DNA of 58,430 nucleotides, the filler included, from Dirinaria sp. TL-2023a (taxonomy: Eukaryota): the NCBI GenBank assembly GCA_051941275.1. It is 8 parts of 8 records of this genome, joined end to end, with 100 filler letters (N's around TTAATTAATTAA, not from the genome) between each part and the next. Parts side by side here need not be neighbours in the genome. Positions count along the whole stretch, not along the records: positions 21,981 to 29,198 come from JAVEBF010001342.1; 7 more parts are not named here. One strand, written 5' to 3'. Position 1 is the first letter of the stretch. The number at the start of each line of letters is the position of its first letter. Under the pieces are notes generated by a model that was not told the DNA's origin, did not search any database, and saw nothing but the letters and a program-made list of their open reading frames with translations. The position numbers and the translations under genes were made by a program. Shown here one piece after another: positions 14,561-51,225 of the stretch.

Positions 14561-14660
14561 NNNNNNNNNNNNNNNNNNNNNNNNNNNNNNNNNNNNNNNN
14601 NNNNTTAATTAATTAANNNNNNNNNNNNNNNNNNNNNNNNNNNNNNNNNNNNNNNNNNNN
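14561..14660. other. Artificial contig linker
   Basis: N44-TTAATTAATTAA-N44. Confidence 0.99.
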
Positions 14661-17726: not shown

Positions 17727-20700
17727 TCAGATCGGCGCCGGAGTGCCACACTTCGCGCACTGCATCCTGACAGCTCCTCGGCCGGCCATCGCCTTCCAAC
17801 TCCCCTCCCCGCACCGAGTACATTTCAGTTCTCCTCCACCTGGCGCATCGTCTGTCTTGACCAAGCTCTCCTCGCTGCTCAACGCGCTAGCGGTTGTGAT
17901 CTCCCGCTGCAGCGGCACTTCCAAACGATGATGATGTATACTATTTCCATCATCTGCGCTGCCGAAATCTTCGACACTGGTCCCTCCACTGTTGAGCGCG
18001 GAATGGTCGTCAAGATCGGTATCAAGGCTGTGTCCTCCGTTCGTTGCCGAGCGAAGTGGATGGGCCGCACGAGCGGCTTCTGCTTGCGACTTGTACAGTT
18101 CACGGTTCCAGAACATATAACTTTGGTCTCCTTTCAGCATCAACGGGTCTTGCTCGGCGACGAACTGAGTACCTGAATTGCTGTTTTGATGGGTCGAAGC
18201 GACAACATTGTAGGAACTGGAGAGTTTCGCTTCTTCATCGCTGCGCCGGGGGCTAGTAGGTGGGGAAGTGGCGGCTAGGGAGGGCGTGGTGGCTGCAGTG
18301 AGCGGGTGAGAGTTGTTGCCCTGGCGCAGCGTGTAAGTATTATTCGAACTGGACCTTAATGAGCCGGCTCCTAGTGATTTGCGGGGCGAGATACTCCGCC
18401 CGTGCGGCTGCGAGTTTTCAAAACTCCCGTTAGTAGATCCGATGCTTTGGCGCCAGCGATTGATGCGGTCAGTGGAGGGGTGATGATTGCTGGAGAGGGA
18501 TGTCCGACTGTTGCGTGTCGCAACCGAGTTACTCCGTCCAAGCATCTTCTTGCTGAAGCCAGTGTCGTTGCTGCGGAGGCGCTTTTGATACGCACAGTCC
18601 TGGCGGAAAACTTTTATATGGCCCATGTAGTCAGCTGTCACGATGATATTGCCACCAGGGTGTGTCGAGCGAGCGATATAGGCGGGTGATTCTTCGGGTT
18701 TGCTGACGCGGCGGAGTTCTGGGGTTGCAGGCGTGCCAGGTATGCTGGAGTCGGATAGTTTGTGATCGAGTTGACTGGGGGGTTTGGACGAGGAATGGGA
18801 TTCGCTTCGACTGATAAGCTTGACTGGAGGTGGGTTGCATAAGTCGTAAAGAGGGTCGCCAGAGGCACTAAGAAGCTGACGAGTTTTGCTGGGGGCGATG
18901 ATGGCAGCCGTGACAATCGCCGGGTGCGCTTCAAAAACTTCGACAGGTCGCCGATCTTTGTCAACTTCTGGCGAACCGGTAGACCAGATATACGCTTTTC
19001 GATCCTCGCTGCCACAGATTACGTATTTGGCATCCTCGCTGAAGGAGGCATGGATTTGAGAGCACGTGTTTTCGTTGCCTTTCAGTTTGACCTCCAAGCC
19101 TTTGTCTCTAAAATTATATATCCGTACTCGAGAGTCATTGCTTGTAATTAGGAGCTTTACATCGCCATTCGGATCATTGGGCGGATATGTAATGGCTTGT
19201 ATGCCGGTGACTTTGCTACCCTTGGCATTCTTCCCATGGGCAGAGCGGACATGGACTTGGGTCTGATACTTCAAACCTTCAGTCTCATAGAACAGGCAGA
19301 GTCCATTCAGACATCCTGCTATTGAGGTCTTGCCGTCGGGAGAAAACGCGACAGAAGTGATCAAGTCAGGAACTTGGACCCAGAAGGCGACGCTCTTGTC
19401 TGGAATGCTCCACAGGCGAAGTTTCGAGTCCAAAGAGCCAGCTAAGAAAAAGCGATCATCTTTCGGGTGGAACTGTATCGATGTTACGAAGTCATTATGC
19501 TTGAAGCAACATAGACACTCGTTTCTGCTGACGTGCCATAGCCGAACGGTTTTATCCATCGACGAAGAAAGGAGGAAATTGTTCTGTCGCTATTAGAATC
19601 GACCCAAACACCCAGTCTGATTACCAGCAGCAACATACCTTGCTCCATGCGATGTCCAGTATGCTTGCGGTATGTCCTCCATACTCCTGTATTGTTCTTC
19701 TCTTGAACACAGGCGCGCTCAGTCTCACACTGTGCCCTCCCTTTTCGGCTGCGTCCTCGGCTTTTTCGTGCTCAGCGCGATCCTCAGCTGTCGCAATCAC
19801 GGCCCAGACCCTGACAGCGTAGTCCTGGCCTCCAGCAGCTAGGTATCTGCCGTCCTTTGAGAACTCCATGGCCCAGACTGCATTCCCATCCTTCCTTGGG
19901 TCGCCGCTCTTGAAGCCTCCATTCTTGGCTAGTCGTCCACCGCTTTGTGCAAATTCAAGCCCAGTTTTACCCCTCAGCTCTTGTGCGAGAAAAAGCCTGT
20001 TGAATTCTCTCTCCTTCTTTCCGTGGCAGCGAACTTTGATGTACTTCGGTGGTGAGGGAAAGCGAGGTATGAAGCCGATGGGTTGAGAAAAGACATCCGC
20101 ATCCATACCTTCGGTTCTCTTGTCGCCCATATCCGATTCATCATCGAATGTCTCCAAGGCCGTATCCTTCTTCTTCGCAAAGCGGCTGAAGAACGATACT
20201 CGGTTTCTGGTCAAAAGTCAGCTCGCGGTCAATGCCATTTTCGGCTTTTTTGCCCGTCAATCCAATCAAAATGGTCTACCACACATCCAAGCACGAGCAC
20301 TCACCGTTTGTCCTTTGTGTTCGAGTCCGTAGACTCTGCTCTTGCTAGGGCTGGATCGAGGGATGTTCGAGCTGAAGTTGCAGAGTTTCCAAAATCGGGG
20401 GTTATCGAACGTTCATCAGAGGGTGTGGATGCGCGCGCTCGTTGTGGGAGCAAAATTTGTGTGTTTGTGCGACTAAGAATGTGCTGGATTGAAATATGCT
20501 GTCAGCTATTGTCGTTGTACGTCTGGGACTCGTGGATCAGGCGTACATTGGACAGTGGGTCAATTGCAGGCTGCTCTCTCTTGATCTCTGTGGATTCATG
20601 TGATGGCACACCAGGTGCAGTCTGGTAAGTCTTGTTCTGGGATTTGACTAATTTGGCGGGTCCTCGCGCTGGGTTCACGGTCAGCTAAGATCCACGTAAG

Positions 20701-21880: not shown

Positions 21881-21980
21881 NNNNNNNNNNNNNNNNNNNN
21901 NNNNNNNNNNNNNNNNNNNNNNNNTTAATTAATTAANNNNNNNNNNNNNNNNNNNNNNNNNNNNNNNNNNNNNNNNNNNN
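21881..21980. other. Artificial contig linker
   Basis: N44-TTAATTAATTAA-N44. Confidence 0.99.
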
Positions 21981-23023
21981 GGGGTGAGGGGAATTAAGAA
22001 TCAAAAGATGATATGGATTTTAAATGTCCATCGCATCGTATCGCTAGAACGGATAGGGCCGTATTCATGGTATTGGATTGGATATCTGAAAATCGGAATA
22101 TAAAGTACTCCCTCTCAACATCTTCTATCATTGATTCTTAATTTTCTCGCCGTTCCTCTTTTTTATCTCACTCAGTCTTTGAAAGCCCGATTTTATTTTT
22201 TCTCTCGTTTATCTATGACTTAAAAAGGGTGTTTGTGTTGCTACACTCAAGATAGAATTTGATGCGTGTTTCGGTGGATGTATATGGATGTATGTGGGGA
22301 TGGGGATGGAGATGGAGAAGAGGGGAAATAAATGCGTTGGGTTGGGTCGGTTTTAAGGAATATGGGATGTATAAGTAGGTACTAAGGGAGTATGGTGGGT
22401 GAGGGTGATAATCATCGCCTGAGTGGTCAATAAGTTCCCCGTACCATTGCCATCAGAAACCTGTTACTGCGTTGTATTCTTTTTTTTTTTTCTTTTTTTT
22501 TTTTTTTTGATTTGATAATTTCCAGTCTTGCCACAGCCGCTCTGTTAGACAGATCATGATAGCCTTCAAACACTTTATAGGTCAATTGAGACTTGGAAGT
22601 CAGGGATCGAACCTTGGTCGAAGTGAGTATCATGAAATACATCTGTTCTAAGTTGGAGTTTTTAAAAACAGTACGAGTCAACTGACACTAAGGCATGTTT
22701 CAGTGATAGTGTGCTTGCTCCCCCTCGTCCTAACCTATCTAAGGTATAATCTGGTGCACACTCAGGTGAGGGAGAGGGAGGGAGAACTTAGCCTACTATG
22801 TGCTCAACAATATTCAACGCATGCGGTTCAACGATGTTGTGCGACCACACTCTCCCAAACATCAAAATGAATCTAAACTCGCCAAGCAATCAATTTCGCT
22901 AACGCCCAGCTTAGCCAATGTCAGGACGGACAATCTCCGATTTGTAAAGGCACCCTTCTGATCCTCTTAACCGTGTTAAGATAATCAAGGACATGGATGC
23001 GCTGGTAGAGACTCCTCACACCT

Positions 23024-23892
23024 TCATTGTGGCCGCCCCTCCATCTTTGTCTCCGCTTCAACTTTCTCCTGCTGGTCTCCTGAAGAAAGGTATGCGTCAT
23101 TCGCATTCGCTACAGACTGTCGAGCGGATTTTTCTGCCTCAGCCTTGGAAGCATTTACCTCGGCTGATGTAGCGTGGCTGCCCCATCCGTTGGCAACTAG
23201 TTGTTCCGCTTGCGTTGCGGCCTTGCACCCGCTTGCGGTAATCTTGACGTGGTTTTGTCCACTCGATTGTGGCTCAGGATAAGCATTCGAGTTCGCCATC
23301 GCATTAGATATAGGCAATTTGTCCGAAGAGGGAATCTGAAAGCATATGTGATTAGAAATGCAGGCTCTTCTTTCTTCGCTAGGGGTTTCTTGATCCATAC
23401 TAATTGAGCCTTTTGATTTGGACGGCTGCTTGGTTGGGTCATTCGAGCTGGACGGCTGTTGAGGCACCGGCCTATGTGCTTGGTATCTTCCTGGACGTGG
23501 GTGACAAGGCTGTAAGTTCGCTCGGTGATATGCACTTGCAGAAGGCGAGTCTTGTCGTTCAACGCGCGAAACGTACTGTCGATTTCGTTGCTCTTACTGA
23601 CGACCCAGAACCAATGGTCGTACCAGATATCTTTCGGCCTCAGCAAATTTAGAAGCGAATTGACATCGCTTGCGGTGGCGATCAGAAGAGGGAAGATATC
23701 GTCGCTGTTGAGAGCCTCGTGGGTGCCGATGCGCCGAATTATTCCAAGGAGACAGCTGATGTTGGAGCGTTGTGTTTGATACAATGACGGGCCATCCTGT
23801 GCGGCTTTGTGCAATTTTAAGAGCCGCTGAGCTACCACCTGACTGTATGCAGCAAGCTGAGTTACGCTTGCAATCCCGCTTACAACATCCAT
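23024..23892 (-). CDS. HeLo-like/SesA-type helical domain protein with C-terminal two-repeat HET-s-like amyloid motif (267 aa); intron 23336-23400
   Basis: N-terminus MDVVSGIASVTQLAAYSQVVAQRLLKLHKAAQDGP resembles fungal STAND N-terminal/HeLo-like domains; a GTATGG...CTAAT...TTTCAG intron joins the two ORFs in frame; repeats ITASGCKAATQAEQLVAN and VNASKAEAEKSARQSVAN. Confidence 0.8.
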
Positions 23893-25448
23893 CTGGTGGA
23901 AGGTGGGGTTTGAGACGATAACGGCAATTGAGATGACAACACCAATTATTATTTATGTTGGGCACACTCTTGTTGCACTGATCAGGTAGCGATGCATATG
24001 ATCGATCAAGATGAGCCTGATCTTCGATTCCATAGGGTGCAGTGTGCAGCCAGGCGTTTTCAGGCTGCACGGAGATAGCAATAGCTCGACCTAATAAGCA
24101 AGTCCCCTACATTCTGGCTGGTGTTCTGGTCTTTGCTATCGCTATGAGAGTCTGAGGCAACCAGTCGCGTGCAATCTCATTCCGTAAAGCTCCAAACATG
24201 AATGGCTGTCTATCAGGAATTTGGTTTAGATAAGTAATGATAACTTAGAGTGTTTTCCCATTGAAAATATTGGATAAATTTGTATACAAGACTGTTGCAG
24301 TCCCAAGGTTGACTATGTCAGCATACGATGCAGCAATTAATGATCAGGATGTATTGTGGATAGTGGTGTTGTACAATTTGATCGCAGCAGAGAACGTTCT
24401 AGGAGCGAACTGACCAATATATGTGCTCGAGGCCTTGTATCAATACTTTCAACCCAAGGTTTGGCCGAAACACACTAGCCAGATACGGAATCTAAAGTAC
24501 GCCCCGCATGTACATTATGCATCTGTAGTCTATGCAGAGCGGGCGACAAGCGTGGACACACAGCGTGCAATAGGCTCACGTACTGTGCTTGTAAAACCAT
24601 TGAGTATGTGCAAGACGGCAATACCAGAGACTCTGTAGATCTAGACTGATTTCCCACAAGGACAAGTTGCGAAGATGAAAAGGCAAAGCAGCGATGTGTG
24701 ACGAGGTGCCCGATCAATATCTGAGCATTCATGAGATTGGTGCTAGAGACACATGCTTCCTTTGTTGAACATGAAAGCAGGATGATCAAGGTGAAATCGT
24801 GACTCGAGCTTTGTCTGTCATCTGTCATATCATCGCCAGCCCTGGACGAGATCGGCACTGTTGTCCGATTAGGACTAACTCCACAGTCTCTCTAATATAA
24901 AATGTCCTCCCTTATCTTGTCCCTACCCACTACAACTGCCGCGCAATTGCTCTGGTTTTTTGCAGATGAGTGAAGGTGAAATGCTGACTGATCGCAGTTT
25001 AGAAGAAAAATAGTATCGGCGGTTAGATACAGAAAAAGGGTTGCGCACACAAATTTGGTGAAGCGCTCTCGATTAAGTATCCGCCAAAAGATTATTATAT
25101 GCACCACTTACTTAGGGAGTCCAGAACAGTTCGAACACGACACGCGTCAAGCCTTGCTTCAAATTTCGGATCATCCAGTCAACCTCGCGTATCAGTCAGC
25201 GCCCGCGCCGACCTGTCAAAGGGGCAGTCCACCTGCATGTCAGAACCGAAATTTGATGTGCTAGTAGCCAGTTTCTCTTTGCCCCTCCAGCCAACCATAA
25301 GCAACCTGCCACCAGACGCCCCTAATGAGTCGCTCTCAGTTTCTTCACAGTCAAATATCCGGTGCGTCGCGAATGATGGTGCTTACTACAGCCCTTCCGA
25401 TTATGCAGTATGACACACTGAAAGCGTTTTCATTTGCAATCCTGAGTG

Positions 25449-26322
25449 ATGTCCTCGACGGTGAATGCGAATGAAAATGAAGCCGGGACAGCCTCGCAGC
25501 AAGCAGTGGGCAATCGGGACACCCAGATAGCCGGGGAAGGCTCCAATCAAGGAGTGGCCCCTCACTATCAGAACAACAACAACCATATGATCTTTTGCTT
25601 GGATAGAACCACCGCCATTGTTCTCTCTTTAGTTGCTCTTGTCATCGCTGGTGTAGTGCTTGGAGTGGTCTTTGGTCTGAGAGCTTCCAAAAGCAACAAT
25701 AGTGGGTCGCAGTAAGTACTTTTAACACACTCCAGGAACAAACCACATGATTAGTCGTCCTAGCATCATCAATACTACAGTCGCGTCGTCCCTTCCGTCC
25801 ACCACAGCGACTCCTACATCTAAAGCGAGCTGGATCACCTCATCATCCTTATCAATCCGGAGGACAAGTACAACAGTTTTACCTCCACCTCCCAGCCCTA
25901 CCGCAGATGGCGTACATCTGGTGAATTATGTTAATGGGACCGCCGTGGGGAGCGGATTTGCATATTACGCTTCCGCGGTACAAGGGAATAACGGAGCACA
26001 GCCGAATGACTATGCCGGTGCATCGGTAGATGTGGATACCAAGTGGGAGGGTCGAAACATTACAGGTGAGCTCTTATGTCACGGCGTGTGCTCCATAATG
26101 ACATGAGATTCCTATGTTCAGGCTGACTTGACTGCTGTAGGTTATTTTGCAGACACCAAAACCCTTTTCTGGGTCGACATTCATTCGACATCCGCTGCAG
26201 TGAATCAAGCTATCGGCATAGCAGGCAATGGGTACAGGACGTTTGATGTTTACAAAGATGATGGTCGGTTGCTATACAAAGAAGGCGGGGTAGATTTCTA
26301 CTCTATATGTTATTGCCAGTAG
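25449..26322 (+). CDS. Single-pass membrane protein: N-terminal amyloid-like motif, TM helix, Ser/Thr/Pro stalk, about 115-aa ectodomain; introns 25712-25754 (or -25763) and 26066-26140
   Basis: MSSTVNANENEAGTASQQAVGN; TM AIVLSLVALVIAGVVLGVVFGL; GTAAGT and GTGAGC donors join three ORFs in frame; ectodomain DGVHLVN...AYY...QPNDY...WEG...GYF...GIAGNGY...YKDDGRLLY...ICYCQ. Confidence 0.82.
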
Positions 26323-28352
26323 GAGAGGAATATGATGTTCGACATTCCAGCAAAAGTATAGCGAAGCTAGTTGACGTTAAACCTCGATAGGGGATCTCTG
26401 AATATCACGCATTCTTGAATACGATGATCCTTGGTGGAGAATCGCCTTACGATAGTAGCAAATAGGATGGGATGCAGATCTTCTCTCTGCTGTGACGCAT
26501 CCTACATACATACCTACCTTGACTGTTTTGTCGATATACATCGAGCTGCAGCGTCCCCAAAACCAAACGAGTGATAGTGCTTGCAGTCCTCGTACCCCTT
26601 ATTTCGCTATCCGCACTCCCCAGTGCTACATATATCGCAATCCTTGCCCCTTCCTTCCCCCAGACCCCCAAGACGAGAAAAACGGTAATATCACCGTATC
26701 TGGATAATGGGCTCAAAATATGGATAATAGCTTGAATGATAAAGGAACCATATAGAAGGATCGTCAATTAGGATTACTACCGTTATCTAATTTTCAAGGC
26801 CTTCCCAGCGCACATATTTAGAAACGCCATGATAAATACATTGGCTGAACAATTGTCGCAGAAAAATGAACTCTCTCCATACGCTTCATGGTTCCTTTTC
26901 ATGCATCTCAAGGCATGTCATCGCAGTATCAAAGTAACGGAGAGGCCTCCATGGACACCGAGTCCGTCCTATCCGTCATTGACATCAGTTTCTCTTCCTG
27001 ATTCTACAACATCTTCTTTTCGAATTCATTCAATCCTCATACTTCGTCATCGAATTATATGACTGATAATTTCCATTGCCAAAAGCACCTTATTTGAAGA
27101 CTCTCCTGTTAGCGCTCCAGTCACCTTACCTAGTTAGTATTAGTCAGGATTGGTGGTCAGATGGTTCCATAGGCGACGGTTAAGGTAGGTAAGGTAGGTG
27201 ATCCGGAGCCCTTCCTAGAATCATCATAGCCTTCCGTTATTATTTCCAACAACTCCATGCGGCAAACGATGGCACTTGAAAGCGGTTGTTTCGAGAGTTT
27301 CAAAATGAAGCGGCTTTGGCAGTCGGTTCTGTCCTTCATGACATCTACGATCTAATATAGGAGTAAGATTACGTTAATCTCTTCGAAAGACGTTGTGATA
27401 TGGATGCAGTTGTATCGGCCCATATGAAATGAGGTTCATCTGATGTCAAAAAGGACCCTTTCCGGAGAAATGGATGAGGACGAGAAAGGGTTATATGATT
27501 AGAGCCAAATTCCTGCAGTTGTTTGTGAGTCTGTCTATCATCATCATGTTTCCGATCGCAAGCTAGGTGCGAGATCCTCCAATTGCCCATAGATATATGA
27601 CCAAAAATTTCTGCAAACCCGAAGTCCTTCGTCTCTCCCTTCGCTAACGTGTTCGTGCTCATATGGAACTCTCAAAGGGTTGTTGGCAGTGCTTTCTCTC
27701 GTTTCCTTGCGAAAACAGTCTAGTCGATGGTTAGTCAGCAGAGGGGTTCAAAGCACTTTGCTTCCATGCTTTTTACCACCTAAGTACCTTACCTTGGGCC
27801 TCAAACCACTACCTTACTGCAATAGCTAGCTTTCTCACCGTTGCTACTCTAAGAAAGCTTCTCAGGCAGATGAGGAGTTCACGTCTCTCTATGACATCAT
27901 AAGCTATAGCGGTTCAGTATGACCCTGCATATCCCATGCATCTCCTGCAAAACTCCCGTGGACTATGCGTGGGGAAACAACTTTAAGTTACAGCAACACG
28001 AGCTAAGCCGATCCTACACCTTACTCATCTGGGAGTCGGCAGATGGGTGCCAGGTTAGACAACCTCGGAGCTGAAAGAGCAAACCGCAACTCCCCATTCC
28101 AGAAGCGTACCTGGCAAGCGAACATGCAGGCTCGTATGAGACTATTGTGTTCCTGTGGCTTCGGCCTAGATCGCAGAGAATAGAGGAGAAAGCAAGCTAT
28201 ACCGACATCATATCCGCGACCTGTGGACTAAGGTATATAAGTATGGATGTGATCGAGAAGTTTTTTTTTTTTTTTTATTCTCAAAGAACGAACATCCTGA
28301 TCCCAGAGACCTACCAACCAAATCCTGAACTCTCCTCACATACTCTCCCAAA

Positions 28353-28749
28353 ATGCGTCTTCCGATCCTGGCTCTCCCTCTCCTCTCTTTAACCCTGGCC
28401 GCCCCCCTCTCCTCGCGCCAATTCACCGCCCAACTCACCTTCCAAGGCGCAAGCCTCAAGGACGGCTACGGCCTCTCCGTTCCCGGAAACGGGATCGTCG
28501 TCCCCATAAGTCCGTCTTTCCTTCTCCTGCCCCCCAAAAGCTTCTCTACATGCCAGCTTGGGTACCGATGATCTGACAATACTACGTATAGAGAACCCAC
28601 TCAGTGTATCATACATTTCTCTCGGAGGCGGAGCGACGTGTACCGCTTTTGGCGCCGACGGGAGCCAGACCACGCTTTCGGGTTCTACGTTCATGAAGCC
28701 CGTCGGCCCGCCACAGAGGCAGATCAGTGTGACCTGTTCTCAGATATAG
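28353..28749 (+). CDS. Small secreted protein (about 104 aa, 2 Cys); intron 28510-28591
   Basis: Signal peptide MRLPILALPLLSLTLAAP; spliced to NPLSVSYISLGGGATCTAFGADGS...VGPPQRQISVTC. Confidence 0.8.
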
Positions 28750-29198
28750 AGGAGAAAGCTCATGAAGAATATATCTTTATCTAAAAAAAAAAAAAATTCT
28801 CTCCCGAAGATGGGATTTTAATAAATATGTTCCTCGTAAATAGTCTTTGATCTAACTCGATATCTTATCTTCGATCAATTTTCAAATCATGACTTTTACA
28901 GTGCACAAAGGGAATTATCTCTCCGCAAATCAAATCCCCACCCAGTTCTCATGAATCGCCTTTCTAATAATTTTTTACAGAAAAGGCTTCTTTCCTTCGT
29001 AGGCAGAGCAGATGATATCAACACTGATCCACATAAAACATCATAATGTCTATCATCATCCCCCATTTCTTCCTTTCCTAAGTGCACATGATCCTGATTG
29101 GATTCATTGACATACTTAACCCCCCAAAAGGAGTAAACCAAAAACGAAAAATGAATCAAATCATCTAGCTCTACGCTACCCTACCCCTTACCTAGAAC

Positions 29199-29298
29199 NN
29201 NNNNNNNNNNNNNNNNNNNNNNNNNNNNNNNNNNNNNNNNNNTTAATTAATTAANNNNNNNNNNNNNNNNNNNNNNNNNNNNNNNNNNNNNNNNNNNN
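29199..29298. other. Artificial contig linker
   Basis: N44-TTAATTAATTAA-N44. Confidence 0.99.
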
Positions 29299-36509: not shown

Positions 36510-36609
36510 NNNNNNNNNNNNNNNNNNNNNNNNNNNNNNNNNNNNNNNNNNNNTTAATTAATTAANNNNNNNNNNNNNNNNNNNNNNNNNNNNNNNNNNN
36601 NNNNNNNNN
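36510..36609. other. Artificial contig linker
   Basis: N44-TTAATTAATTAA-N44. Confidence 0.99.
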
Positions 36610-43819: not shown

Positions 43820-43919
43820 NNNNNNNNNNNNNNNNNNNNNNNNNNNNNNNNNNNNNNNNNNNNTTAATTAATTAANNNNNNNNNNNNNNNNNNNNNNNNN
43901 NNNNNNNNNNNNNNNNNNN
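43820..43919. other. Artificial contig linker
   Basis: N44-TTAATTAATTAA-N44. Confidence 0.99.
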
Positions 43920-46471: not shown

Positions 46472-49400
46472 TCAATACGGACCGGGGTCGAAACCGAACC
46501 AATCCTGCGATCTTCCAGCTTGGTATGCTTGGCTCAGCATCATTACATCCACGCCGTTCATCGTTAGGATCGGATCCTGAGCCAGAATCGGGTCAATGGG
46601 GCCTAAACGACTATCCGTCTGCACATCCAGTGGAAACGAATTGTCACCATGAGCCATGAAGTCCATAGGTTCCCAGATATCAGGATCGAAGCCTCGAGGA
46701 TCTTTTGACATATGCTCCGGCCAGGGTTGGAAAGAAGGCATGAAATTGGGGGACTGATGCTCCAGCGGCGCAGTCATGATGTCGTCTGTTGAACCGCCGA
46801 TTCTCGGTGCTACAAGCCTGAGAAGGCGGCTTAATTGGTCCCACGAAATTCGCGCAGCGCTACTCGTGGATGCCATCGACAGAAGCCAATTCATCCCCTT
46901 CTTTGCATCTTTCAGCATCTCTTCTGCCTCAGAAGGCATGTGTTTTGCTCGGAATGACATCTCAAGCATCAGCACAGTAACAGCACGTTTGATGTAGTAG
47001 GTAAGGGTCCACCATACTGGGCTCTGACGGATTGACTGAGGATTAGGCTCTGTGGGTAGTAAGGCGAGGACAGCCCGCGCTGAAGAAACGCAAAGACTAG
47101 CGTTGTCGTGATCCGCGTTGACAGATGACTCTGATTGGTGCGGTACAAGCCGGTCTCTGCTGCAGAGCGAGGGCCGATTGATAATCGTTCTCAAGCTGTT
47201 TGAAAGGATAGCGAGTGCCACCTTGAAGGATTCAACGCGAGGGTCTTTCGATGGAATGGTACTATTGAGCGCTGCAGGAAGTGTCATGTGCCATTGCGAG
47301 AGTTGCGCATTCAAGTTTGACACTCGAGCCTGAATCGCCGACCATTTCTCAAGTCGAATGTCCGGACTATAGAGGCTCTCTAGGACCCTTTGACCCAGAG
47401 CATTAAGTTCTAGGTAATAGAAGAAAAAGGTCGTGGTGATCGACTCGCTTGCCTTGTCGTATGGTCGGGGCCCGCACGTACTGGAAGAATGCGTTGATGT
47501 AGTCGAACTTGCCGGACGAGTTTGATGGCCGGCTGGAGACAACGTCTGCGAGCTTGTAGAGATGCCTTCCAGAGCGCCTTCGTCGGGTAGTGAAGGGGGG
47601 AGGGGTACTGGAGCACTGCAGTCTGTCGATTTGACCATTGCCGGCCGTCCGGTCACCAGACACAAGGTGCGTTCAAGCGAAACTATGGCGTACCACATTC
47701 TCACCCGAGTGAGCTTGTCCTCTTCCTTCAGCCCTTGGAGGTGGTTCTCTAAATGCATTCCTAGAGCTTGGGCACTGCGGATAGCTAGTCCAAGAACATT
47801 CCATGCTCTAAATTACCCCATCAGTAAAGACGAAGGGGCCCACTTGATAAAACCTACCGGTTGAGTTGATGGGTTGCAAGAAAATACATGGCTGACAATC
47901 CAAATGTCTCTATTTGGGCAGCGTACACTCGGTCTTCAAACAGCCCTGACTCAGTACCAAGGGACCGCGCCCGTGCAAAAAACAGGAGGTGATCCCGGTC
48001 ATGGCCTGCCCACTCGGCATGAGTAAGGTGAGCGTGGATGGCTCCTATAGCAAGGACTAATTGCAGAACAGGCACAAAAATTCTGAATCGAGACTCTGTG
48101 CGAGGTTCAACGCTGGCCACGTACTGCGAGTATTCATCCAAGAAAACATTTTGATCGAGGACCGGAAAAGACGGATGAATCGTTGCAAAGTAGATATCGA
48201 TGAGGGTATCGGTGGTTGGCTTGATAGGCAGGCCGTAAGGATCGATCTGATCCTCAGCGAATGAGTTGTCTATATCATATAGATATTCGTCTGGCTTACT
48301 CGTGTCTAAGCCGGCATGGTGGAGATCTGTTGGATTGATCTGTGTAGATTCTTGATTATTCCGCTGCTCGAACTTAGATATAGACTCCATTGGTTTCTTC
48401 GTGAGATTCGTTGTCAGCTTTTGCATCCATTGTAGATCAGAGGCTTGGCCTAGAAAGGGTTGTTCGCCTTCTGCGGAAACTGAATGCTGGAGATTGTCCG
48501 CATTCACATGATCAGTTGACCCCATCGAGCCGACACCTGAAGCTACAGACTCGCCGCCACTGTCGCTACCATGGTCAATTGCCGTACTTTGCCCGATTCT
48601 TTTTGATATCGAATCTTCTTTATGCTCAACTTCTGGAGGCTAAGGCTCGTTAGTGTTCGCTATGCCGATTCCTGTCCTACAGATTGTACACACCATCAGA
48701 AGCGCACGCTGTACAGCCGATTGCTGATCTTGGGAGAGATCAGAAACATTACGTAAAAGTAAGTTTTCGTACGCCGTGACCTTTTTCAAGAGTTGTTCAG
48801 TGAGCCTATGGTCCATTAGCAAAATGACTGTTTCATGTCTTGCCCTATCCATACTTCTTCTCTTTGCTCTTTTTTCCGTCCTCGTAATGGCACTCCATGT
48901 CTAAATCGCGGCAGTGTTTGCATGTAGGGCGCTCGCCGTTGCACTTCGACTTCCGAGATCTACAAGGCTCGCATGCCTGACTTACACGCGCGTTTCGATT
49001 TGTTGGGTTATTAGGGCTTACTACTGAAGGCCTGACACGGCTGATGGGTACACCAGTCTCCCGCCTTTTCGCACTCACACCCAAGCCTTCGACGTAGTTC
49101 ACGGAATTATCTGTAGTTCTGAAAGTTTGGCCGGGTAGAAGGCCTTCCTTGGATCGAGCATTCTGCGGCAGAGATGCACCAGAACTTCGTGAATCTTTCT
49201 CATCGTTTGAGTCAGGGGACGACGCGTGTTTGCTTTGTGCCTTGATGGCGACTTTTCTATTAGCTGGTGCCGTTTCAAATGCCTCCAGATATTTTGCGTA
49301 GTTGACGTAATTTTCAGTTTTCTTGTATGCCACCATTTCCTGCTTGTATTTCTCCCATGGTACTGCAGCTTTCTGCTTCCAAGAATCTTTGTCTGCCGGC

Positions 49401-49861
49401 GACATCGCCTGCCATCTCTCGCCTACCTGTCGCGATATATCGATGAAAGGTAGCGACTGGTCTTTCACCTCCTCGCGGACATGGTTCGAGAACAGGACAT
49501 AAGCAGAGTAGGGCCGTTGCGGAGCATTTTCGTCGGGTTTTGGACGGTGCCGGTATCCTCGCTTTCCGGAAGATTCCACTCGGGGTTCATTTTTCGACGA
49601 GATTGATGACGACGCTGGGTATGCCGAGTCGGAGACCGACTTGTTGATCGGAGACACGATTGGTGTGTCTCGCGCCAGCCGGCGCGTGTTTGCGATCTCT
49701 CTTTGGAGCTTTTCCTGATGGACCTCTTCCACATTCAAGGCGTTCAAATCTGCTTCGGTGATCTCGAGCAGCGTTTCCCATGAGTCAAAGCCGGCTTGAA
49801 CGAAGCGATCGTGGTATTGAGAGATGCCGAGCCAAGCCAGCGTTATCTCCAGATCAGCCAT
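46472..49861 (-). CDS. Multi-domain transcription factor: SAM, HMG box, Zn(II)2Cys6 and Fungal_trans domains (4 exons)
   Basis: LGISQYHDRFVQAGFDSWETLLEITEADLNALNV (SAM); PKPDENAPQRPYSAYVLF...VGERWQ (HMG); ACEPCRSRKSKCNGERPTCKHCRDLDMECHY; YFATIHPSFPVLD; RMWYAIVSLERTLCLVTGRP. Confidence 0.88.
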
Positions 49862-51125
49862 GTCAGCGACGCAGTTTGGCAAATTTTGGCTCCGACTCAG
49901 TCACTGCCAGAATGGTCTGCTCTCGCTCAATCGCTTCACACGGTTTCGCGCCTCTTATCAGATGTGGGGCTGGCAGAGCACCGAGCCTCGATGAAAGTTA
50001 TGCATAGAGACAAATGCCATAAGCTAAATACTGCGACCTGCGGAGCAATATGATTCGGGCAGCCGCAGGCTGACGATAGTTTAATGATAGTCTGCTATTT
50101 GAACTGTGTATCGGAGACTGATTGGTGCAACGTAAGAGCATTTGTCGCTGTCGCGTCCTCCTGTAATGGATTAGACGATAGTTTCCTGCAGATTTCCTTA
50201 GAGAAATCATAGGCTGGAGGGAGCCGTGACCAATCACATTCGACAGATACGAACGATGCCGGTGGTATGCGTATGGTAAGGTAAGGCTGCATTACCAGGG
50301 TTGGTATGCATCTTACCCTACACAGTATGGCTTGTACTACCATAGATTTCAGGGTCGCCCGCCTGGAAGGGAGGAAGGCTGAGCTCGGAGGTTGCTCCGG
50401 GGCACCCTTTACCTTTACATGAGGTAAAGCTTTGGGATTTTGTTCAGATACGGTAATGTACCTACCTTACCTTACTGTAGGTATTATTAGTATCGCGCAA
50501 CTGTTTTTAGAGCACAATAGACTGTCCGATGCTATTGCAGAAAAGTACTCCAATCGAGCGAAACAGAAATCCTATAAGCATGAAAATACTCCGGATTCAA
50601 ATCCAAGTGTTCTTTGGTAGCATCACAGTACGTTGAATCCAGCTCCTATCATTTGGAATAGCCAAATTACAGCCGAGCATTGTGTCGAGTCCAGCTGAAA
50701 GGCACCGGAGTCGAGGGAGTACACTGGAGGATAGATAGAAGTACTATGATACCTGATGTTTCCGACTTGGCGTCCTATTCTTGCCCTTTGGTTGCCATTT
50801 CCCTTGTTTCAACAGTGGTATGCGAACATCGAGTCTACTACTGTGCAGCGTGGTGTAGAGACTCTGTAGCTAGAGCGGGACAGATGTCCGAGGGGGCCCC
50901 TCGGGCCCCCTCGGCCGTTTGGTCACAGCAAAGAAGCGAGAAATGAATGATTGGCCGTCGGCTGGACGGAGAGAAGCGTCCGAACCAATTGCCATTTCCA
51001 ACAATCGCATCCCTCAGATCTTATCGTAATTCGGACGGATCTCCGGCACCTCAGATTTCTTGCCATCAGTGTCTGCAGCACTCGCCCGGCGTTGGTATTT
51101 CCCTGTTATCGAGGAGGGGTTTCGT

Positions 51126-51225
51126 NNNNNNNNNNNNNNNNNNNNNNNNNNNNNNNNNNNNNNNNNNNNTTAATTAATTAANNNNNNNNNNNNNNNNNNN
51201 NNNNNNNNNNNNNNNNNNNNNNNNN
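51126..51225. other. Artificial contig linker
   Basis: N44-TTAATTAATTAA-N44. Confidence 0.99.

Follow-up and report, generated by a model that had tools for sequence, protein, structure and literature searches.

Introduction

In the sections of the literature drawn on here, amyloid signaling pairs of fungi and bacteria combine a sensor that carries a motif at its N terminus, a small helical protein that carries two C-terminal pseudo-repeats, adjacent genes, and a similarity that is specific to cognate partners (PMC4518210, PMC5485727, PMC12261475). The receptor N-terminal motif and the effector C-terminal motif encoded by such collocated genes evolve in concert (PMC4518210, PMC12261475). In the same sections, fungal amyloid signaling is described only for cytosolic NOD-like receptor (NLR) sensors and their effectors (PMC12261475, PMC7889193, PMC12881547, PMC5485727, PMC4518210), and our literature searches found no report of a fungal membrane receptor carrying an amyloid signaling motif. 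The locus described here bears on the way in which recognition outside the cell may be linked to regulated cell death in fungi. It comprises a receptor-like gene at positions 25449-26322 (+) and its divergent neighbor in a 58,430-nucleotide stretch of DNA (the window) from Dirinaria sp. TL-2023a (GCA_051941275.1).

All four parts of the amyloid-pair signature appear to be present at this locus, but in place of an NLR the sensor would be a membrane protein of type II topology. We report the architecture of the receptor-like protein, the family context of its ectodomain, the adjacency of the two genes, the motif that they share in register, and further loci in which the pair is found again with a motif that co-varies.

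Results

The receptor tail matches both pseudo-repeats of the neighboring protein

The receptor-like gene, a fungal gene of three exons, has canonical splice sites. Its spliced 248-amino-acid (aa) product is letter for letter the database entry P0001, a hypothetical protein from a metagenome-assembled genome (MAG) of Dirinaria sp., a lichen-forming fungus. The N-terminal tail of about 46 to 50 residues is rich in Asn, Gln, Gly and Ala (N+Q+G+S+A fraction, 0.63), and translation places in it, at residues 5-22, the motif VNANENEAGTASQQAVGN, which we call R0 (25461-25514, +).

Head to head with the receptor gene, at a distance of 1.56 kb, lies Q9191_006944, which has the adjacent locus tag and encodes the 267-aa protein P0007. 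Exon 1 of this gene (23401-23892, -) encodes residues 1-164 with a helical N-terminal domain. The intron (23336-23400, -) is followed by exon 2 (23024-23335, -), which encodes residues 165-267 and the stop codon and supplies a C-terminal tail rich in Asn, Gln, Gly, Ser and Ala. Within this tail are two pseudo-repeats, r1 (KITASGCKAATQAEQLVANGWG; residues 195-216; 23180-23245, -) and r2 (EVNASKAEAEKSARQSVANAND; residues 223-244; 23096-23161, -). Compared with each other, r1 and r2 gave a score of 38 at an offset of 28 residues (p 0.022).

We compared the tails of the two proteins using shuffles that preserve composition as the reference. The best local alignment of the 46-residue tail of P0001 was with r2 of P0007 and was ungapped over 33 residues. 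The Smith-Waterman score of the receptor tail against the C-terminal tail of P0007 was 50, while the shuffles scored 29.7 ± 5.1 (z 3.9-4.1, p 0.002-0.003). R0 fell on r2 along the best diagonal (54) and on r1 along the third-best diagonal (26), and the difference of 28 between the diagonals equals the offset between r1 and r2. A complex prediction with residues 180-267 of P0007 and residues 1-50 of P0001 scored 0.02 against a mark of 0.34, a result that is neither support nor counter-evidence.

At the DNA level, the two motif-coding regions have in common a 12-nucleotide string (23110-23125, -, and 25459-25475, +) that encodes N-A-N-[E/D]. At this length the string is not evidence of gene conversion, but it agrees with the second-best diagonal of the protein comparison (offset 70). 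No inverted DNA repeat of at least 14 nucleotides was found between the two motif-coding regions.

The tail motif was also found in two orthologs from Teloschistes, P0002 (full-length form, P0087) and P0018, which have the same order of tail, transmembrane (TM) segment and ectodomain as P0001. It is kept there as [VI][DN]A[ND].N.AG..S.QAV[GA], starting 8-17 residues from the first methionine (M1), with variation elsewhere in the tail, and the orthologs carry a single copy only. Both P0087/P0002 and P0018 are without a Met between M1 and the TM segment and hold tail, TM segment and ectodomain in one product. Judged from sequence, the architecture of P0001 is more than a product of chance, and it recurs in P0087/P0002 and P0018.

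The P0007 family yielded 11 matches. The C-terminal tail is present in three of them (P0007, P0008 and P0012), seven gene models stop or diverge at the site of the P0007 intron, and the tail of P0017 is different. An Atlas feature search with residues 1-150 of P0007 returned look-alikes scoring 0.95; 19 of the 30 matches lie in sets in which 22-28% of the members carry PF17111 (PigL_N), and others lie in sets with SesA on 13-24% of the members. A profile search of P0007 against the PDB returned nothing relevant, and a VIA comparison of its low-confidence model returned generic helix bundles only (best Z 9.3). The N-terminal domain of P0007 is thus HeLo-like or SesA-like in appearance, which we take as a lead and not as a result.

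The divergent pair recurs with a different motif

A first metagenome scan, made with the P0007 family (alignment A2), gave 245 pattern matches, none of which was confirmed. A second metagenome scan found two loci, L001 and L002, that contain the same divergent pair. At both loci the receptor homolog begins with a tail of 39-43 residues followed by a TM segment, both in exon 1, and there is no further Met over the 38-42 residues that separate the first Met from the TM segment. The introns are placed as in P0001, with a phase-2 donor after the TM segment and a phase-1 intron within the ectodomain. The divergent upstream gene is separated from the receptor gene by 389 and 865 bp at L001 and L002, and the N-terminal domain of its product is a distant collinear homolog of the P0007 family (hhalign E values, 8.8e-5 and 1.5e-5; 23-25% identity).

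The motif at L001 and L002 differs from R0. It reads xN....GA.Q.[IL]; the receptor has one copy of it and the effector two. The L001 tail scored 39 against its own effector (z 4.4, p 0.0025), and the L002 tail scored 40 against its own (z 4.5, p 0.0025). When tails with the R0-type motif (motif A) were compared with effectors of the L001/L002 type (motif B), z values were -0.7 to 0.8; for motif-B tails and motif-A effectors they were -0.6 to 2.9. The receptor motif of L001 and L002 hits r2 and r1 of the effector on diagonals 38 and 13, and the difference of 25 is again the repeat offset. The receptor motif therefore bridges both effector repeats in register at all three loci.

Positions 1-7000 of L002, which abut the pair, have a GC content of 21-25% and no open reading frame (ORF) of at least 110 aa, and the pair itself has a GC content of 42-54%. 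This region looks like an AT-rich isochore of the repeat-induced point mutation (RIP) type.

P0001 is a putative type II membrane glycoprotein

Exon 1 of the receptor gene (25449-25711, +) encodes residues 1-87 plus two nucleotides and covers the tail, the TM helix and the start of a stalk. Intron 1 (25712-25763, +; 52 nucleotides, GTAAGT...TAG) has its donor, CA/GTAAGT, in phase 2. It is followed by exon 2 (25764-26065, +), intron 2 (26066-26140, +; 75 nucleotides, GTGAGC...CTGAC...TAG, in which CTGAC is the branch site) and exon 3 (26141-26322, +), which includes the stop codon. A Pfam search with the three exon translations found no family at E ≤ 10 beyond subthreshold noise.

Behind the tail of about 50 residues lies a single TM segment at about residues 54-76 (25608-25676, +), preceded by a juxtamembrane cysteine (FCLDR). 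AlphaFold draws a helix at residues 53-74 (22 aa), and the Kyte-Doolittle hydropathy peaks at 3.07 over residues 57-75. The segment is followed by a Ser/Thr/Pro-rich stalk at residues 77-133 (25677-25899, +), which is split by intron 1, contains Ser, Thr or Pro at 32 of its 57 positions, and has a predicted local distance difference test (pLDDT) score of <55. The C-terminal domain of 115 aa, the ectodomain (residues 134-248; 25900-26322, +), is encoded by exon 2 (to 26065) and exon 3 and is rich in Gly, Ala, Val, Asp and Tyr. N-glycosylation sequons are present at N145 (NGT) and N186 (NIT) in this domain and at N83 and N91 in the stalk. With sequons and stalk C-terminal of the TM segment, P0001 is a putative single-pass membrane glycoprotein with a predicted type II (N-in, C-out) topology.

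A preliminary description of this gene had proposed a receptor-like layout, and translation, the AlphaFold model and composition located every listed feature, including the tail stretch YQNNNNH, where it had been placed. It had also reported a second partial copy of the motif in the tail. The stretch, QIAGEGSNQGVAP, does lie 16 residues after R0, at residues 26-38 (25524-25562, +), but as a repeat it is not beyond chance: the best diagonal in a self-comparison of the tail was indeed at offset 16, with a score of 24, and that score was reached by 30% of the composition-preserving shuffles (p 0.30).

Cysteines stand just before the TM segment, on the predicted cytosolic side, in P0001 (Cys50; 25593-25595), P0087 (residues 38-39) and P0018 (residues 45-46). 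The pair is CC in Teloschistes and FC in the window, and these cysteines are candidate palmitoylation sites.

The ectodomain aligns with a widespread fungal secreted domain

A phmmer search with the ectodomain returned 72 representatives at E ≤ 0.001, of which 20 had E ≤ 1e-10 and 7 had E ≤ 1e-30. Thirty of the 72 were retrieved, and an alignment of family members (A1) comprises 32 sequences. The ectodomain aligns end to end in A1, with L140 and G214 invariant and S151, Y156, P168, W182, E183, F191, F198 and N218 nearly so. By this alignment, the ectodomain of P0001 belongs to a widespread, unnamed family of fungal secreted β-domains.

Several of the 30 retrieved relatives are proteins of 140-190 aa with signal-peptide-like starts, and a hydropathy scan found a signal-peptide-like N-terminal segment in 9 of the 76 family proteins examined. 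Twenty proteins, 16 of them members of the domain family, were scanned against Pfam. The domain lies C-terminal to CAP in P0053 and P0055, to Peptidase_M10/Astacin in P0042, and to DUF7888 in P0048; P0085 matches DUF7888 below the cutoff, and P0073 is a tandem form. Since the relatives are secreted or fused to secreted domains, the ectodomain of P0001 would lie outside the cell and its N-terminal tail in the cytosol.

An internal TM anchor combined with an N-terminal tail of at least 40 residues was found only in P0001, P0002/P0087, P0018, P0060 and P0064, which are five clusters among those examined. The R0 motif is present in P0001, P0002/P0087 and P0018. Residues 1-50 of P0064 contain a different motif-like tail (HNIAGQGATQEITNN), which resembles the second motif-like stretch of the window, and a strongly basic stretch before the TM segment.

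AlphaFold models the ectodomain as all-β with a pLDDT of 89-96. No Pfam family was found for it with hmmscan, a sequence profile search of the PDB gave nothing below E 0.7, and Foldseek gave no PDB match at E ≤ 0.001 (best E, 0.058; Alt a 1, E 0.068). A VIA structure comparison over 48,161 chains gave no match with Z ≥ 5 (best Z, 4.8), with small β-barrels such as avidins, dirigent proteins and PliC at Z 3.8-4.5, and an Atlas search gave no usable match. The preliminary description had likened the ectodomain to free small secreted fungal proteins. Such free forms do exist, and the domain is also found fused to CAP, metalloprotease and DUF7888 domains. The further proposal of a lectin-like or decoy sensor gained no support either way from the Foldseek and VIA fold searches, which gave no clear match.

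Seven family members (P0002, P0004, P0005, P0021, P0022, P0053 and P0066) have an insertion of 14-25 residues exactly at the site of intron 2 of the window gene (A1 columns ~378-402). These gene models probably retain intron 2, and the position of the intron would therefore be conserved across the family.

Genomic context

In all likelihood the window consists of eight MAG contigs of about 7.2 kb each, placed end to end. Blocks of N are located at 7235-7334, 14561-14660, 21881-21980, 29199-29298, 36510-36609, 43820-43919 and 51126-51225, and the genes flanking these blocks are not neighbors. Each block is a pair of 44-N runs separated by 12 bases, and the spacing of the blocks is ~7.3 kb. The genomic context of the receptor gene is therefore 21981-29198 only (7,218 nucleotides, which equals the length of the longest contig recorded for P0001 and for P0007), and the rest of the window consists of separate contigs.

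On the contig of the receptor gene, a small ORF at 28329-28750 (+) has a signal-peptide-like start (MRLPILALPLLSLTLAAP), continues in a second frame and has no Pfam match; it may be the gene of a small secreted protein. Other contigs hold ordinary genes, among them those at 17727-20217 (-), 46472-49900 (-) and 3566-4735 (+), which include genes for a WD40 protein, a Zn-cluster/Fungal_trans regulator, an HMG-box/SAM protein, a Kae1/TsaD homolog, eIF4E and an Atg3/10-like protein. The WD40 gene (17.7-20.2 kb) was considered as an NLR partner and rejected, as it is on another contig and no NACHT domain was seen. Pfam searches with the flanking ORFs of the receptor locus, L001 and L002 returned nothing relevant.

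Discussion

A possible amyloid-type relay from the cell surface

We give roughly an even chance to the reading that this gene pair forms an amyloid-type relay like that of HET-S and NWD2, with a type II membrane receptor in a role analogous to that of Drosophila PGRP-LC in the Imd pathway. By this analogy, a ligand would cluster the ectodomains and so bring the cytosolic tails together. The clustered tails would adopt a cross-β (amyloid-like) fold, and this fold would template the r1/r2 tail of P0007. The helical domain of P0007 would then be released and act on the membrane, leading to cell death or to another membrane response. The interaction between the tails, its amyloid nature, the activity of the effector and the ligand are the steps that we infer. 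In the preliminary description the tail motif was taken to be the signaling output, and this view now has strong indirect support: the neighboring protein holds two copies of the motif, and the pair recurs with a motif that co-varies between receptor and effector.

A number of observations weigh against the relay. Each similarity between a tail and its effector, taken singly, reaches only p ~0.003. Because L001 is related to L002, the pair has been seen in two independent lineages and not in three. The self-similarity of the effector repeats is modest in P0007 (the p of 0.022 given above) and not significant in P0008 (p 0.20), P0012 (p 0.74), L001 (p 0.28) or L002 (p 0.10). The L002 effector contains an in-frame TAG at 8598-8624 (-), where L001 has a Lys codon, and this may reflect a pseudogene, a sequencing error or an unrecognized intron. 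The first ~150 residues of P0007 are helical in a model of low confidence (mean pLDDT, 53), r2 is rich in Ala, Glu and Lys and is drawn by AlphaFold as a low-confidence helix (pLDDT ~45-54), and at E ≤ 10 hmmscan found PF17111, SesA or HeLo in none of the 11 members of the P0007 family. On the receptor side, the charges flanking the TM segment do not by themselves settle the topology of P0001. That no NLR-type long ORF or Pfam domain was found within 21981-29198, L001 or L002 speaks for the relay, but as all three contigs are short, this absence covers the available sequence only.

To these may be added the comparisons with described motifs. Amyloid motifs related to that of HET-s (HRAM) are two pseudo-repeats of ~21 aa within the C-terminal ~80 residues of a small HeLo, HeLo-like or SesA protein, with Gly invariant at position 19 and positions 5, 8, 10, 16 and 18 hydrophobic (PMC4518210). 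When R0, r1 and r2 were compared with this signature by eye, none of the three carried it, and none of the registers tried combined a conserved G19 with the hydrophobic pattern. The RHIM, or RIP homotypic interaction motif, has the core pattern [IV]Q[IVLC]G, and the sigma motif is represented in Pfam by the models Ses_B and NACHT_sigma. The PP motif is marked by a GxQxG segment (PMC5485727). A regular-expression search found neither GxQxG nor the RHIM core in any of 11 tails (6 receptor and 5 effector). With hmmscan, no match to the sigma models or to the HET-s prion-forming domain (PF11558) was found in the exon 1 translation at E ≤ 10, in P0001, P0018, P0007, P0008, P0012 and P0017 at E ≤ 0.1, or in any of the 11 A2 members (E ≤ 10). 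Six motif strings had no match in the supplements of PMC9815663, the motif-list archives of that paper lying outside the comparison.

Alternative explanations

The shared motif could act without amyloid. It would then mediate binding only, the neighbor being recruited as an adaptor by β-augmentation or by a helical interaction, with no self-propagating fold and no templated change of fold. The linkage of the genes and the sharing of the motif serve this explanation equally well, and the A/E/K-rich r2 of P0007, modeled as a helix, together with a motif that lacks the HRAM hydrophobic core pattern and matches no known amyloid-motif family, speaks in its favor. We nevertheless consider it unlikely, as the tails are N/Q/G-rich and the placement of one copy at the extreme N terminus of the receptor and two pseudo-repeats at the effector's extreme C terminus is the layout of an amyloid pair, and in-register identity between partners is rarely needed by ordinary linear motifs. 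It is about as improbable that P0001 is merely a membrane-anchored protein of the cell wall or surface, that the likeness of the low-complexity tails comes from chance or composition, and that the two genes are functionally unrelated. The single p values of ~0.003, the biased composition of the tails (0.63 in that of the window) and the TM-anchored relative P0060, which has no such motif, would fit this coincidence, as would the lack of an annotated close P0007 homolog from Teloschistes genomes in the search for P0007 homologs. However, the shuffles keep composition, the tail motif is conserved between the Dirinaria and Teloschistes orthologs, whose tails otherwise vary, the receptor motif falls on both repeats in the repeat register at all three loci, and a second lineage has the divergent pair again, with another motif that is likewise cognate-specific.

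The start of translation also has to be considered. If P0001 began at Met47, which stands six residues before the hydrophobic segment, this segment could be a cleaved signal peptide (the sequence LRA/S follows it) and the product a free secreted protein without the tail, as most members of the family are secreted forms. At 22-24 residues, however, the hydrophobic stretch is long if taken as a signal peptide. The match of the tail to the neighboring protein would also stay unexplained, and the motif in that tail is kept at the protein level. Since P0087/P0002 and P0018 offer no second Met ahead of the TM segment, and L001 and L002 encode tail and TM segment in one exon without such a Met, we regard a start at Met47 as very improbable. 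The same orthologs bear on two outcomes that the preliminary description had named as fatal to its proposal, an exon 1 that is not joined to the ectodomain exons and a hydrophobic segment that is cleaved. Both look unlikely, as the orthologs hold tail, TM segment and ectodomain in one product and the segment lies ~50 residues into the protein. The amyloid-type relay with a membrane-anchored receptor remains the reading that we prefer.

Significance and comparison with known systems

A receptor-side motif on a membrane receptor would extend the principle of the amyloid relay to the fungal cell surface, would parallel the IMD receptors of insects and crustaceans, and would give an unnamed, widespread family of secreted domains its first functional handle. 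A more general proposal, to which we give somewhat less than an even chance, is that lichen-forming fungi have a class of NLR-free surface receptors, type II membrane proteins with a β ectodomain of the secreted type, that nucleate through a prion-like tail motif the amyloid conversion of a dedicated HeLo-like executioner encoded next to them, and that the motifs co-evolve as private pairs. If this proposal is true, fungi would have their own counterpart of PGRP-LC/Imd, and sensing outside the cell would for the first time be linked in fungi to cell death under amyloid control; such receptors could serve to recognize photobionts, bacteria or lichenicolous fungi. The pair is small, with ~250 aa per protein, is suited to the established Podospora prion assays, and should be of interest to the fields of fungal immunity and functional amyloids.

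Like NWD2/HET-S and the HRAM, PP, sigma and PUASM pairs, as far as these are covered in the sections considered, the two genes described here are adjacent (PMC4518210, PMC5485727, PMC12261475, PMC9815663). As in NLR-effector amyloid pairs, the motif is located at the extreme N terminus of the putative sensor and at the C terminus of a helical protein of less than ~350 aa, the effector has two pseudo-repeats and the sensor one copy, and the motifs are most alike between cognate partners, an indication of concerted evolution. Unlike the sensors of those pairs, P0001 has no NACHT, NB-ARC or repeat domain and is a 248-aa protein of predicted type II topology with a putative extracellular β-domain. 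The motif also differs from theirs in having no HRAM signature, no GxQxG segment and no match to a Pfam motif model, and Pfam models miss the N-terminal domain of the effector.

PGRP-LC of Drosophila has type II topology, with its N-terminal tail in the cytosol. The proposed receptor would resemble PGRP-LC/PGRP-LE with Imd, and the shrimp receptor SRB2, in being a membrane pattern-recognition receptor with a short cytosolic amyloid-type motif that is common to a downstream cytosolic partner (PMC13506858, PMC10268257). These cRHIM systems of insects (PGRP-LC/Imd) and crustaceans (SRB2/Imd) are its closest analogs in function. Unlike these systems, the pair described here has no PGRP or scavenger-receptor domain and no cryptic RHIM (cRHIM) or RHIM core. 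In contrast to Imd, which is a death-domain adaptor, the partner is HeLo-like in appearance, and the lineage is fungal.

Over its full length, the 115-aa ectodomain of P0001 aligns with a secreted β-domain family that occurs free and fused to CAP, metalloprotease and DUF7888 domains. Unlike most of this family, P0001 is predicted to be TM-anchored behind an N-terminal tail, and the receptors of L001 and L002 add two more anchored forms, which carry the second motif.

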